From contig CAZGQH010000001.1 in NCBI GenBank assembly GCA_964527575.1, forward strand, positions 1 through 25,500: DNA of 25,500 bases, read 5' to 3'. Positions 17,540-25,500 of this stretch are shown piece by piece; position 1 is the first letter of the stretch; every line of letters starts with the position of its first letter. Source of the stretch: an uncultured Lachnospiraceae bacterium (GTDB taxonomy: Bacteria; Bacillota; Clostridia; Oscillospirales; CAG-272). Position numbers and translations under genes: made by a program. Below the pieces are notes generated by a model, which made no database searches, was not told where the DNA came from, and saw only the letters and a program-made list of their open reading frames with translations.

Positions 17540-19585
17540 CTATTTATCGCTAAGCACTTTTAACTGCTGCTTAAAATATTTTGAGCAAAGCTTGTCCTTT
17601 CGTTTTTCCGAAGATAGATATTCCCAAACTTTCCCCAAATATGTCGGTAAAGTTATCACAAAGAGATTAAAGAGCCATACGATTGCACTTACAATTACCT
17701 CACTTATGTCTTCACTCTCTAGAATGTTGGTTAGCAAACTTGCGATCGGCTTCACCTTGAATATCCAACACAGCAAAATAACCACTGCTAGCAATATTAC
17801 AATTCCTGTGACAATTAGTGGAATATGTGCTCGATGAGAAAACCATTCAACTTTTCTTTGAGCCTTTCTTTGAGAATATATTTGAGCATATTCTTCAGAG
17901 GACTTTTTGCTTTCTAATTCTTTTCTATATTCTTCCGTAGCTTTTTTCGATGCTTCTTTTTCTGCTTCAACGGCTTTTAACAATTCTTCTTTGTGCAATC
18001 CTTTTTCCTGTTTCAAAATTTTATCAAAAGCACAATCAACTGATACTTCATAATTTTCAGGATCATCGAAAGAATAATTACCTCTGTTTTCCAGAATCTC
18101 CTCAATGATACTTTCCTTAAGACGAGTATCAACTGTTTTTTGAGATATTACCGATAAAAGCTCAACTGGATTGATATTGATATTATCTTCTTCAGTGCGA
18201 AAATGTCTCAAAGTCATAAACATACAAAATGATTTGTAGTCATCATCTGTAGCTCTGCCAGCAACTTTTAAGATAATTGACAACCAAAGGCTGGGAATAA
18301 CCACAATCGGAACCCCGTTGAAGTTTTCCTCTGACCATGCGACAAGCAGTTGATCCGCAGAAACTATGTATTCGTTCATGCTCCATAGATTTTTTGCATT
18401 TGGAGGGCGTATTGAATTAATATACAGTACCTGACATACATCTGTTTTTATCGAATCATCGGTGGTTCTTTTATATGGTCTTTTTTCAGTTTTGTATTGT
18501 TTTAAACTTTCAAAAAGTTGTTGCTTCGTTTGGGAGGAAATATTGATGGTCGAAGAATCAACATATTCAAAATCTTTAATGGCGCTACTAATCTTGCTTA
18601 TCAAATATTTTCTGAAAGACGCATAATCATTGTATTTGTTTTGAATTTCTTTGCACCAGTTGTAATAAATCAAATAAAAATCATTGATTTCAAATCCACC
18701 AGATATCTTCGATAACATCTCTGCATTTACCGGAGGTTGAGCGTTCGTAATTGCTCGTATATATTTTATCTGTGCATCGATAACTCTATATAATTCATTT
18801 AGTACCGCACTCGAGTAACATAAAGTGATTCCAACTTCTTTGCATTTTTCAACAAATGCTTTTGAAACAAATTTTCGTTCATCTTTATTAAATCCAGCAA
18901 TTCTAAAAATAATATTCGTATCAAGGAAGAATTTTTTTCCTCTAAAGATCGACTTGGAAATTGTAGGATTTTTGTTCGATGTAATCAGACAATACTCATA
19001 GCAAGACGATATAACCGAATAAAGGAATCTGTTTTTATCATCATTTTCCCATCGTAAAAATTCATTAATAATTTCAATCTCTTCCGAAGATGGATTAAAT
19101 TCACTGTTAAATCTCAAAAAGGAAATCTTTTCTGAATCACCATCCATAATAGTAAGTAAATTTTGGGCATTTGAGTTAAAGCAATAATATAAAAAACTCT
19201 GTATAAGACTTAAAAGTGCGTTCTCGTCAAAATCAGTTCTTTCATCGGAAAAAAGTTTCAAATAGTATTTCAGTTTTTCCAATGCAGACGATTGTGCCGC
19301 CAATTGATTAGCCGTTTTTTCACTCAATTGGTAATACAGCCCGTTTTTTACAATTCTCCCCCGACCTTTTGCTTTAATAGCTGTCTCAATTTCAGTAATA
19401 TCAAACTCAAGTAGAAACTTATTTTTTATTCTTGTACAGATTTCTAAAGATGACTGCTCATTTTTCTCGGAATCAAATAGAATGTACTCAGCAAATTTGC
19501 AAATATACTTATCTCTGGTTGTAGCGCCCTGATTCTCGAGAATCATCGATAAACGAAGCAAGTCCTTCTCCTCGAAGTTTGTCAT
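17540..19585 (-). CDS. AT-rich 681-aa protein: putative PIN-like nuclease domain, coiled coil and two C-terminal TM helices
   Basis: Long ORF in very AT-rich DNA with a GGAGG RBS 9 nt before ATG. PIN-like pattern FFLDTNII (D222), SAVLNEL (E264), IKTDV (D382), IVSADQLL (D411). Charged helical stretch at about aa 521-580. Hydrophobic segments at about aa 588-609 and 630-650. ORF confidence is high; the domain call is moderate. Confidence 0.7.
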   Translation of the reverse strand: MTNFEEKDLLRLSMILENQGATTRDKYICKFAEYILFDSEKNEQSSLEICTRIKNKFLLEFDITEIETAIKAKGRGRIVKNGLYYQLSEKTANQLAAQSSALEKLKYYLKLFSDERTDFDENALLSLIQSFLYYCFNSNAQNLLTIMDGDSEKISFLRFNSEFNPSSEEIEIINEFLRWENDDKNRFLYSVISSCYEYCLITSNKNPTISKSIFRGKKFFLDTNIIFRIAGFNKDERKFVSKAFVEKCKEVGITLCYSSAVLNELYRVIDAQIKYIRAITNAQPPVNAEMLSKISGGFEINDFYLIYYNWCKEIQNKYNDYASFRKYLISKISSAIKDFEYVDSSTINISSQTKQQLFESLKQYKTEKRPYKRTTDDSIKTDVCQVLYINSIRPPNAKNLWSMNEYIVSADQLLVAWSEENFNGVPIVVIPSLWLSIILKVAGRATDDDYKSFCMFMTLRHFRTEEDNININPVELLSVISQKTVDTRLKESIIEEILENRGNYSFDDPENYEVSVDCAFDKILKQEKGLHKEELLKAVEAEKEASKKATEEYRKELESKKSSEEYAQIYSQRKAQRKVEWFSHRAHIPLIVTGIVILLAVVILLCWIFKVKPIASLLTNILESEDISEVIVSAIVWLFNLFVITLPTYLGKVWEYLSSEKRKDKLCSKYFKQQLKVLSDK

Positions 19586-22425: not shown

Positions 22426-22545
22426 GTTATCCTCCGGATGACCGATAGAGGAAAGAGTCGCCCTATCGATAAGTATAATAGAATATTTGTCGAGTGTATA
22501 AAATTACCATATTCGTTCTGTCTTTGCCAGACACTTCATGTAGCA

Positions 22546-22575
22546 ATTATACCATATTGCCCCCTCTTTTTCAAC
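22546..22575 (-). promoter_or_regulatory. sigmaA-type promoter of the hsd operon
   Basis: Minus strand TTGAAA-18 nt-TATAAT with an extended -10 (TGG-TATAAT). Confidence 0.6.
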
Positions 22576-22604
22576 CGAAAAAGGAGATAAAAAGTCCAAA
22601 AGTC

Positions 22605-22633
22605 TTGCAAAAAGGGAGATTCTGCGTTATGAT
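22605..22633 (+). promoter_or_regulatory. sigmaA-type promoter of the acetyltransferase, divergent from hsdM
   Basis: TTGCAA-17 nt-TATGAT. Confidence 0.55.
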
Positions 22634-22706
22634 AAGAACAGCGCGATTCCGACAAAAACGGCGGCGCCGCGGCTCTGCCGATAAAACGATACTACGGAGG
22701 TACTCC

Positions 22707-23345
22707 ATGCGAGAAGAAGAAAAAATTGCAGCGGGCATCCTGTTCTGCCCCGCCGACCCGGAGCTGAAGGCCATCAAGCTCCGCACTCATAATTTGAACC
22801 TCGACTACAACGCTACCTACGAGGACGAGAGTGAAAAAAGAGCCTCCCTTCTCGGGGAAATTCTCGGCGAGATCGGCGAGGGCGGATTTTTGCAGGGACC
22901 AATCTTTTTCCACTACGGCAAGCATACAAGAATCGGGAAGAATTTCTTCGCCAACTTCAACCTTACCGTACAGGACGATGCCGCCGTCACCATCGGCGAC
23001 AACTGCAACTTCGGCCCGAATACCACCATCGTCACCCCGCTGCATCCTCTCCTCCCCAACGAGCGGAACGCCATGCTGACCGCCTCCGGCGAGAAGAAGC
23101 ACTTCTGCTACGCCAAGCCGGTGACAATCGGCAATAACTGCTGGTTCGGCGCGAATGTCACCGTCTGCCCCGGCGTGACCATCGGAGACAACTGCGTAAT
23201 CGGCGCGGGCAGCGTCGTCACGCGCGACATCCCCGCCGGCTCCCTTGCCGCCGGCGTTCCCTGCCGCGTCCTCCGCCCCATCACCGAAAAGGACAGCCTC
23301 CGTCATCACCCCGAAATCCTCGCGGACAATCGCATCATCGAATAA
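22707..23345 (+). CDS. sugar O-acetyltransferase (maltose/galactoside acetyltransferase family, hexapeptide repeat), 212 aa
   Basis: GGAGG RBS then MREEEKIAAGILFCPADPEL; HYGKHTRIGKNFFANFN, VTIGDNCNFGPN, YAKPVTIGNNCWFGANVTVCPGVTIGDNCVIGAGSVVTRDIP. The ORF-track start at 22494 is an over-extension. Confidence 0.92.
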   Translation: MREEEKIAAGILFCPADPELKAIKLRTHNLNLDYNATYEDESEKRASLLGEILGEIGEGGFLQGPIFFHYGKHTRIGKNFFANFNLTVQDDAAVTIGDNCNFGPNTTIVTPLHPLLPNERNAMLTASGEKKHFCYAKPVTIGNNCWFGANVTVCPGVTIGDNCVIGAGSVVTRDIPAGSLAAGVPCRVLRPITEKDSLRHHPEILADNRIIE

Positions 23346-23347
23346 CC

Positions 23348-23394
23348 ATCACCCATCGGGAACAACTCCAAGCACTCCCGATGGGTGATATTTT
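23348..23394. terminator. hairpin terminator between the acetyltransferase and the trailer end of the CRISPR array
   Basis: 14-bp inverted repeat ATCACCCATCGGGA / TCCCGATGGGTGAT followed by ATTTT. Confidence 0.7.
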
Positions 23395-23467
23395 GTCCGG
23401 GTGATTCCGGAACATTGTCGCGAGCAACCTCCCGCATCTTCCCCGCCCCGACAAATACGAGAATATT

Positions 23468-25500
23468 CTTTCAACCCACGCCCCTGCGCGGGGGCGACTT
23501 ATTTGAGGACGACAATATGAGGCAGTCAAATGTATTTCAACCCGCGCCCCCCGCGTGGGGGCGACGAGTCGTCTGCCAGTAATCCGATATCCAGCCGAGA
23601 TTTCAATCCGCGCCCCCGTGCGGGGGGCGACTCGGGTAATAAGACTTTGATGCCGTTTCTCTCGTAATTTCAATCCACGCCCCCGCGTGGAGGCGACCAA
23701 GGTCGATACAGCAATATGCCAAGGCGCAAGCCTATTTCAACCCACGCCCCATGCGGGGGCGACCTCCCTGATGGGGAACCTCATAATCCGTCATATCATT
23801 TCAATCCGCGCCACCGCGTGGGGACGACCAATGGATGGTACCGAACAGCGTCGAGTTCTGCAATTTCAATCCACGCCCCCTGCGAAGGGGCGACTCTCGC
23901 AAGACTTTCTTTCCTCCCACCCACGACATATTTCAACCCGCGCCCCCGCGAGGGGGCGACTGTGTTTGTTCCGCCTCACTACGATCTGTACATATTTCAA
24001 CCCACGCCCCCGCAAGGGAGGCGACTAAGGCCATTTTCGCTGCTGTAAAACATCGGAATATTTCAATCCGCGCTCCCGCGAGAGGGCGACATGTAGACTA
24101 CCGATTTATAACGGCACTAAGCAAATTTCAATCCACGCCCCCGTGCGGGGAGCGACCCAGCTTAGTCTGGAGTTCTGTGAGCAAATTGTCCTTATTCCAA
24201 CCCGCGCCCCCGTGCGGGGGCGACAAAAATTGAGAATTGGAGTATAATGTAAAAAAACGATTTCAACCCACGCCCCCGCGTGAGGAGCGACCTCCTCTGC
24301 GGTCTTATTCGCCGCATCCTGTGACTTTCAATCCGCGCCCCCGCGTGGGGGCGACCTCACCAATCGTGCAGCATTGTCAATACTTTTCAAAATTTCAATC
24401 CACGCCTCGTCCGGGGGGCGGGGCGACTTTGCCGGGAAGTTAAACAGCCATTCTTCGAAGATTTCAACTCGCGCCCCCGCGAGGGGGCGACCAAAACCGA
24501 TGATGTTGCCGGTGTCGGGATCACAATTTCAACCCACGCCCCCGCGGGGGCGACGGCAGAGACCGACCGCTCCCGGATATACCGCAAAAATTTCAACCCG
24601 CATCCCCGCATAAGGATGACTTCACCAATCACGCGGCATTGTCAATACTTTCCAAAATTTCAATCCACGTTCCCACGCGGGGGACGACAGTACAAAATCG
24701 TAATAGTTATCCCAAACTGCATAATTTCAATCCGCGCCCCCGCGAGGGGGGCGACGAGATGTCTGCCAGTAATCAGATATCCATCCCCACTTTCAATCCG
24801 AGCCCACAAGAGGGGGGCGACCCGCCTTGTTCGGGTACGGCATGGTAGGTTTTATCATTTCAATTCGCGCCCCCGCGAGGGGGGCGACATACAAGGAGGC
24901 AAAAAAATGATTCGTGGCGAAAATTTCAACCCACGCCCCCGCAAGGGGACGACAGAAGCATAACGGCTTCGGGGTAACGGCACTGATATTTCAACCCACG
25001 CCCCCGCGAGGGGGGCGACGAGCTTTATCCGGCATTATGGTGAGGGCTCCCGAATTTCAATCCGCGCCCCCGCGAGGGGGGCGACTTATCGGTTTCAGCA
25101 AGATGTCACTTGGTCGACTATTTCAATCCGCGCCCCCGCGAGGGGGGCGACGTAAGGAAATCTTTCATACCACCGTTTGGAGCTTAATTTCAATCCGCGC
25201 CCCCGCGAGGGGGGCGACGCAAGATCTTCGGTAAGTACTATTGGTCAAGTCATTTCAATCCGCGCCCCCGCGAGGGGGGCGACATACTCCACCTTGCCTT
25301 TTTCCGTCGTCTCGATCTATTTCAATCCGCGCCCCCGCGAGGGGGGCGACGGATATTCCTGGTTTTGAGGCATCGTATATAACGATTTCAATCCGCGCCC
25401 CCGCGAGGGGGGCGACGCTGAAAAGGGCTTGAGTCAGAAGCAGTATGATATTTCAATCCGCGCCCCCGCGAGGGGGGCGACCCTTTTGTTCATGAGAAGA
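23468..25500 (-). CRISPR. CRISPR array, type I-C-like repeat: 31 repeats, 30 complete spacers of 33-37 nt plus one partial; continues past the window
   Basis: Consensus on + is ATTTCAATCCGCGCCCCCGCGAGGGGGGCGAC (32 nt); on - it is GTCGCCCCCCTCGCGGGGGCGCGGATTGAAAT, with a 7-bp hairpin and the ATTGAAA(N) 3' end. Exact copies at 24724 and at the seven positions from 25054 to 25450; variants to the left. The ATTGAAA end and the degeneracy gradient put the leader to the right and transcription on the minus strand. No cas genes in the window. Confidence 0.96.

Follow-up and report, generated by a model that had tools for sequence, protein, structure and literature searches.

A type I-C CRISPR array with 24 non-identical trailer-side repeats and two spacers matching its own cas3 promoter

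The window (the whole 25,500-nt stretch of DNA analysed) has a CRISPR array at its end. Array parsing gave 31 repeats at 23468–25481: repeats 1 to 24 were 24 distinct sequences of 29–36 nt (mean of 4.2 differences from the consensus) with repeat 20 (24724–24755) as the sole perfect copy, repeats 25 to 31 were identical, and spacers measured 33–37 nt across the array. A preliminary description of this DNA had reported the same layout, namely seven identical rightmost repeats next to 24 that all differ, one perfect repeat among the latter, and regular spacers, and the parsing confirmed it.

The consensus repeat displayed the type I-C form (2-nt 5′ end, 7-bp stem, and 11-nt 3′ handle), and the crRNA strand was the minus strand of the window. 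A second contig of the same genome (C2) began with a partial repeat and three perfect repeats, followed by the leader and a minus-strand operon cas2, cas1c, cas4, cas7c, cas8c, cas5c, and cas3. All seven genes had NCBIfam matches above cut-off, cas6 was absent, Cas5c matched a solved Cas5c (E 6e-72), and the relatives of Cas1 were mostly from Clostridia. Because the repeats were identical and the only cas1 found in the genome lay on C2, the contig of the window (C1) and C2 were treated as one locus; the array of C1 very likely continues on C2, by a join that was inferred rather than assembled. Array orientation and the TTC PAM were fixed by a single case, the protospacer of spacer 30 (Table 1), whose target region (5026–13414 of L039, from contig C16 of congener G009) contained large ORFs without Pfam matches plus a REP_ORF2-G2P gene and is a probable mobile element of the genus. 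The locus resembled canonical type I-C (Dvulg) in its gene set cas3–cas5c–cas8c–cas7c–cas4–cas1c–cas2, 32-nt repeat, 7-bp stem, 11-nt handle, and TTC PAM, but it differed in that homogeneity was lost over 24 units.

Table 1. Coordinates of the features discussed, in window positions
Feature	Coordinates	Strand	Basis or remark
Old block, 24 non-identical repeat-spacer units	23468..25053	-	array parsing; L042 identical over units 1-13
Young homogeneous part, 7 identical 32-nt repeats (25-31)	25054..25500	-	contig stops within spacer 31; inferred continuation on C2 1-205, with leader and cas genes beyond
Hexapeptide O-acetyltransferase gene next to the trailer	22707..23345	+	identical gene-trailer junction in sister lineage
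Spacer 2, homologue of spacer 20	23566..23599	-	7 differences, 3 synonymous codons in PAM-anchored frame
Repeats 5-17, exact period-4 cycle (CA, TG, TA, CG) at positions 8/11	23734..24554	-	pattern found post hoc
Spacer 5, homologue of spacer 21	23764..23797	-	13/33 differences, 4 synonymous codons
Spacer 14, CreR-type guide	24356..24391	-	first 18 nt = own cas3 promoter, C2 7966-7949 minus, behind TTC PAM
Repeat 15	24392..24427	-	36 nt, aberrant loop; gives 5′ handle of guide 14
Repeats 18 and 19, on either side of guide 18	24590..24688	-	contain every one of the three compensated stem pairs when repeat 15 is left out
Spacer 18, diverged copy of spacer 14 (5 differences)	24621..24656	-	17/18 seed match, mismatch at position 5
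Spacer 20, homologue of spacer 2	24756..24789	-	spacer comparison
Spacer 21, homologue of spacer 5	24822..24856	-	spacer comparison
Spacer 30	25417..25449	-	32/33 match with TTC PAM in congener contig (G009) near Rep (PF23343) gene

The stem changes of the old repeats comprised 11 G–U wobbles, three compensated pairs, and seven broken pairs; all seven stem pairs were present in 17 of the 24 repeats, one mismatch occurred in six, and two mismatches in one. The nine repeats listed in the preliminary description as carrying G-to-A changes in the stem arm were all verified, as were the four combinations at positions 8 and 11 and the recurring loops. The bias toward hairpin-keeping changes described there was modest: seven pairs were broken, and stem G>A changes stood to mirror C>T changes at 11:3 or 11:5 (two-sided p of 0.057 and 0.21, respectively), an excess short of significance. 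Since any plus-strand G>A change yields a wobble, the wobble bias is not separable from strand-biased deamination, and alone it is weak evidence for selection. Cytosine deamination, also put forward there, was indistinguishable from the G>A wobble excess but left 12 T8C changes and the C>A transversions unexplained.

The determinants of processing were kept among the old repeats: terminal GAC in 24/24, the stem-base pair in 23/24, the pyrimidine after the cut site (RNA position 22) in 24/24, the next two G in 22/24, and handle positions 2–7 in 23/24. The handle had 23 changes at positions 8 and 11 and six across the other nine positions, and per-site variability correlated (Spearman 0.66, p 3e-4) with that of 46 natural consensus repeats of type I-C. 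According to published work, Cas5c reads the base of the stem and the nucleotides immediately downstream of it rather than the loop (PMC8524198). Because the processing determinants were kept and variability tracked the I-C family, purifying selection was argued for: judged from the sequence, selection for processing likely acts on the old repeats, which are probably still readable by Cas5c. The earlier suggestion that selection keeps them processable was supported by the kept GAC, stem-base pair, pyrimidine, and handle positions 2–7. The stem base was broken in repeat 21, and folds were weak or alternative in repeats 15 and 19. Divergence showed no gradient with age across the old repeats (rho -0.06) and stopped abruptly at repeat 25, and the repeats flanking guides 14 and 18 ranked among the most diverged (P 0.03).

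Two features absent from the preliminary description were then identified: guides to the cas3 promoter, and a period-4 order of the repeats. Spacer 14 matched the cas3 promoter at 18/18 PAM-proximal bases and at 5/18 bases of its distal half. This site was the unique best among 82,027 TTC sites of the genome, 198 shuffled versions reached at most 16/18, and about 1e-5 matches as good would be expected genome-wide. The match covered the -35 hexamer TTGACA at C2 7955–7950 of a promoter that was predicted rather than mapped and was the only sigma70-like one between the upstream terminator and cas3. Because the promoter of a sister lineage (see below) differs over this stretch, the match of spacer 14 is allele-specific. 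An allele of the cas3 promoter fitting spacer 18 was also sought, and the single close cas3 relative found had a different sequence. Read alone, spacer 14 is probably a regulatory guide; by analogy with published I-C crlRNAs, guides 14 and 18 would repress the cas3 promoter. Among the other spacers, the one self-match to stand out was that of spacer 12 (24225–24259; 15-nt seed run, 24/35) at C270 1134, a T-rich intergenic site after a tRNA-like sequence and not a promoter. Spacer 12 itself contained a TATAAT box.

Autorepression of cas promoters by CreR/crlRNA guides is known (Liu et al., 10.1101/2023.03.10.532045; Shmakov et al., PMC10120712), and I-C crlRNAs of CRISIS loci give about 21-fold repression with 16 bp and TTC next to the -35 element (Shu et al., 10.1101/2024.12.27.630466). 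The guides described here shared with CreR/crlRNA the degenerate repeats, a canonical PAM, a partial PAM-proximal seed match of 15–20 nt next to or over the -35 element in the promoter of a cas effector, and an unrelated distal half. They differed in being full-length spacers in two copies (units 14 and 18) in the middle of a main array of 30-plus units, and not a solitary or two-repeat mini-array; no solitary repeat unit was found near the cas3 promoter of this genome. Four related loci in Clostridia genomes used solitary I-C crlRNA units as such guides, whose PAM-seed matches of 16–20 nt lay next to the promoter of cas3 or cas5 (L065 3357, L067 5860, L152 3325, and L155 16546). No in-array guide against a cas promoter was detected among 2767 repeat-adjacent sequences of 178 other loci, many of these loci being without the cas promoter. 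A solitary degenerate I-C-like repeat of the present genome lay on the minus strand of contig C163 (about 1914–1946; L093), intergenic and downstream of sugar-isomerase-like ORFs, and its adjoining sequence had no PAM-seed match in the assembled genome.

Cracr arrays (Liu et al., 10.1101/2024.10.29.618823) likewise have arrayed guides that aim Cascade at cas promoters, with I-C examples; they are borne on phages or plasmids outside CRISPR-cas loci and have two or three spacers, whereas the present guides were chromosomal, contiguous with an active host array, and accompanied by mostly non-promoter spacers. Host-type genes (GroEL, acetyltransferase, and type I RM) flanked the array in the window, and the junction was kept in the sister lineage. 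Exact patterns of guides 14 and 18 had no match on mobile elements in IMG/VR and JGI metagenomes, in which the lineage is thinly covered. CreR control itself is known, and the new elements are (i) promoter guides inside an array, (ii) the period-4 order, and (iii) diverged homologous spacer pairs.

The comparison among spacers gave three pairs (2/20, 5/21, and 14/18) far above every other pair in similarity. Both members of each pair shared the handle type (P 0.012), and two of the three pairs sat a multiple of four units apart. The differences of pairs 2/20 and 5/21 were of synonymous type when translated in register with the PAM as a Phe codon (combined P 0.002), and were not significantly so when any of six frames was allowed (P 0.43 and 0.095). 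These synonymous-type differences suggest that the members of pairs 2/20 and 5/21 were taken from one site in invader genes that had diverged, and are not decayed copies of each other. For the 24 old spacers, no protospacers beyond chance were found in IMG/VR (patterns both exact and degenerate), JGI metagenomes (exact patterns), phage and plasmid sequences (BLAST), or five congeners. Stop codons were present in 5/24 old spacers against 33% in controls, which was not a significant depletion. Spacer 22 (24889–24922) contained a ribosome-binding site plus ATG on the plus strand, and spacer 7 may encode a motif from the N-terminus of a DNA adenine methylase.

Bases 8 and 11 of the old repeats were ordered: (i) CA CG TG TA, CA TG TA CG, CA TG TA CG in repeats 1–12 and (ii) CA TG TA CG, CA CG TA TG, TG TG CA CA in repeats 13–24. 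Every block of four in repeats 1–20 held all four types, both sites were balanced 12:12, and same-type pairs at distances 1–5 in repeats 1–20 numbered 0, 1, 2, 11, and 0. The distance-4 excess had P 3e-5 for repeats 1–20 and P 0.001 for all 24; the pattern was noticed post hoc, and correction for the number of distances examined brings the value to about 0.01. The longest identical stretch between repeats one to three units apart was shorter than in permutations (P 5e-5 for repeats 1–20, 0.004 for repeats 1–24), as would be expected if close identical stretches were disfavoured. No period-4 similarity was detected in positions 12–32 or in the spacers, nor in other degenerate I-C arrays, and the search for alternating arrays in 400 order-level genomes gave one short match only.

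Several origins of the variant repeats and of their order were considered and rejected. Tandem duplication of a four-unit block was ruled out by the missing period-4 signal outside positions 8 and 11 and in spacers; import as half-repeat/spacer/half-repeat, by the lack of arm complementarity across spacers; serial inheritance from a mutating leader repeat, by neighbours no more alike than random pairs; and an error-prone polymerase in the cas operon, by the absence of an extra gene between cas3 and cas2. A passive deletion filter, simulated with crude toy models, gave a distance-3 excess or collapse to 3–11 units; deletion-only simulations reached the period-4 order in 4% of runs or fewer and, when run to completion, did not keep 20 units, so that retention of the old block needs selection or suppressed deletion.

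The array comparison was also applied to an unbiased set of 35 cas-anchored I-C arrays of nine or more units each (1101 repeats), none of which resembled the present one, the maximum being six distinct repeats per array. A metagenome scan targeted at heterogeneous arrays, which gives no frequency, found other long degenerate I-C arrays: L172/L194, L184, L191, L192, L204/L205, L206, and L207. Several of them adjoined cas3–cas5 genes, and L172/L194 were nearly identical in two assemblies; coordinates were 12438–13720 in L191, 5500–8600 in L192, and 6871–8163 in L207. The all-different-repeat state is rare yet recurrent among I-C arrays. The preliminary description had taken decay to be confined normally to the last few repeats; wider decay was indeed rare, but it did occur in several other I-C arrays. 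Trailer-repeat polymorphism, described as stabilising the terminal spacer (Garrett 2021 review, PMC8047081), similarly places variant repeats at the old end and has been proposed to counter recombination, but there it concerns the last repeat or few, whereas here it involved 23/24 interior repeats with no gradient and an ordered cycle. The sister lineage (SRR23219686, about 80–85% DNA identity) had the identical junction and three visible trailer repeats, all different, of types TA, CG, TG versus CA, CG, TG in the window. Its trailer spacers had no relation to those described here, so at this distance the architecture is conserved and the content of the library is not. The usual repeat change in the family was a mid-array block switch of the consensus, as in L086 (11450–15652) and L156 (6714–10537). 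About 40 IMG/VR contigs (L095–L150) carried a solitary I-C repeat, mostly different variants, and are Racr or Cracr candidates; viral contigs L241 (2714–3543), L236, L238, L239, and L242 shared one leader-like sequence with different I-C repeat families.

The best explanation, held with slightly better than even confidence, is that the old block serves as a guide library under selection and resistant to deletion, which would still be processed by Cas5c and would include CreR-type autorepressors. The array would belong to one active type I-C locus with two zones: an ordinary, homogeneous leader side, and 24 trailer-side units kept for long by selection on their content. Divergence among the trailer-side repeats would be confined almost wholly to places where Cas5c and Cascade can accommodate it (the loop, G–U wobbles, and RNA handle positions 22 and 25), so that most old units would still be cut into crRNAs, and near neighbours with little uninterrupted identity may resist deletion by repeat–repeat recombination. 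Units 14 and 18 would guide Cascade to the -35 element of the cas3–cas5–cas8–cas7 promoter via an 18-nt seed and TTC PAM, with pairing presumably too short to license Cas3, resulting in CreR-type autorepression from the main array; most other old spacers look invader-derived, the two coding pairs putatively representing homologous sites in diverged targets. Against this explanation stand the strong second-order selection that the anti-deletion logic needs, as simulations rarely gave period-4 order, as well as the missing age gradient, the abrupt stop at repeat 25, the lack of old-spacer protospacers, the unrelated spacers of the sister trailer, and the fold defects of repeats 15, 19, and 21.

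A mosaic of related arrays, the alternative offered by the preliminary description, was not well supported. In a wider form of it, old units would have been recombined in from other hosts' arrays or from phage or plasmid mini-arrays, and guides 14 and 18 would be captured Cracr-type anti-CRISPR guides. Solitary I-C repeats are indeed numerous on phages, with a different variant each time, and the trailer of phage array L241 is visibly a mosaic that includes chimeric repeats. Repeat 11 equals the trailer repeat of L037, the stems of repeats 18 and 19 are the consensus in family members, and the shared handle types of the spacer pairs and the described I-C Cracr arrays fit as well; yet most variants keep the stem arm of their own array, none equals a library consensus, neighbours are as different as random pairs, arms pair across spacers no better than by chance, no viral array with the alternating scaffold was found, spacer 14 fits the promoter allele of its own genome, and the sister lineage has the same architecture, which together leave capture unlikely. 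Rather unlikely is also a generative process of another kind, either a four-type repeat scaffold inherited or templated with spacers exchanged in place (for example by spacer–protospacer conversion or in-register recombination), or a past error-prone repeat duplication. The exact cycle with its balance and complete blocks, the sister trailer types with unrelated spacers, and the spacing, handle types, and PAM-frame synonymous differences of the homologous pairs speak for it, and against it count the post hoc nature of the pattern, its restriction to two positions of this one degenerate array, the perfection of the newest ten repeats, and the six-frame synonymous result. Quite doubtful is the extension in which a scaffold with a four-step handle code is inherited or regenerated and spacers are renewed within it to keep up with changing targets and with the cell's own cas promoter, which would add to acquisition at the leader end a second route by which CRISPR memory is maintained.

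That an old, silent block underwent relaxed or neutral decay with transcription-linked deamination bias appears improbable. In this and other degenerate arrays, no stem change was more frequent than plus-strand G>A (23:13, p 0.13), and the broken stem pairs and missing protospacers agree with decay, but such decay does not account for 23 changes at two tolerated handle sites against six at the other nine, intact critical bases, compensation in three stem pairs, the survival of a PAM-seed match perfect over 21 nt, and a non-random order. An assembly or sequencing artefact is hardly credible: the assembly is fragmented (77% complete, 386 contigs), and the confirming Logan contig L042 (SRR6824180) covers only units 1–13 and may derive from the same reads, but it is identical over 1810 bases (window 22515–24324), the same architecture recurs in the unrelated sample of the sister lineage, and errors would not spare functional sites.

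If the selected guide library is the right explanation, cas autoregulatory guides can sit in ordinary long arrays, a place that the published survey skipped; CreR-type control would then be undercounted, and some partly self-matching spacers would be regulators. The old block offers a natural test of whether repeat divergence protects spacers from loss, a question of array turnover, and its 23 natural repeat variants could map the tolerance of Cas5c, with a use in stable multiplex guide arrays.

In the type I RM system of the window, a low-GC ORF of 681 aa (17540–19585, minus strand) separated hsdS from hsdR; it had no Pfam or NCBIfam match and is a candidate defence effector.
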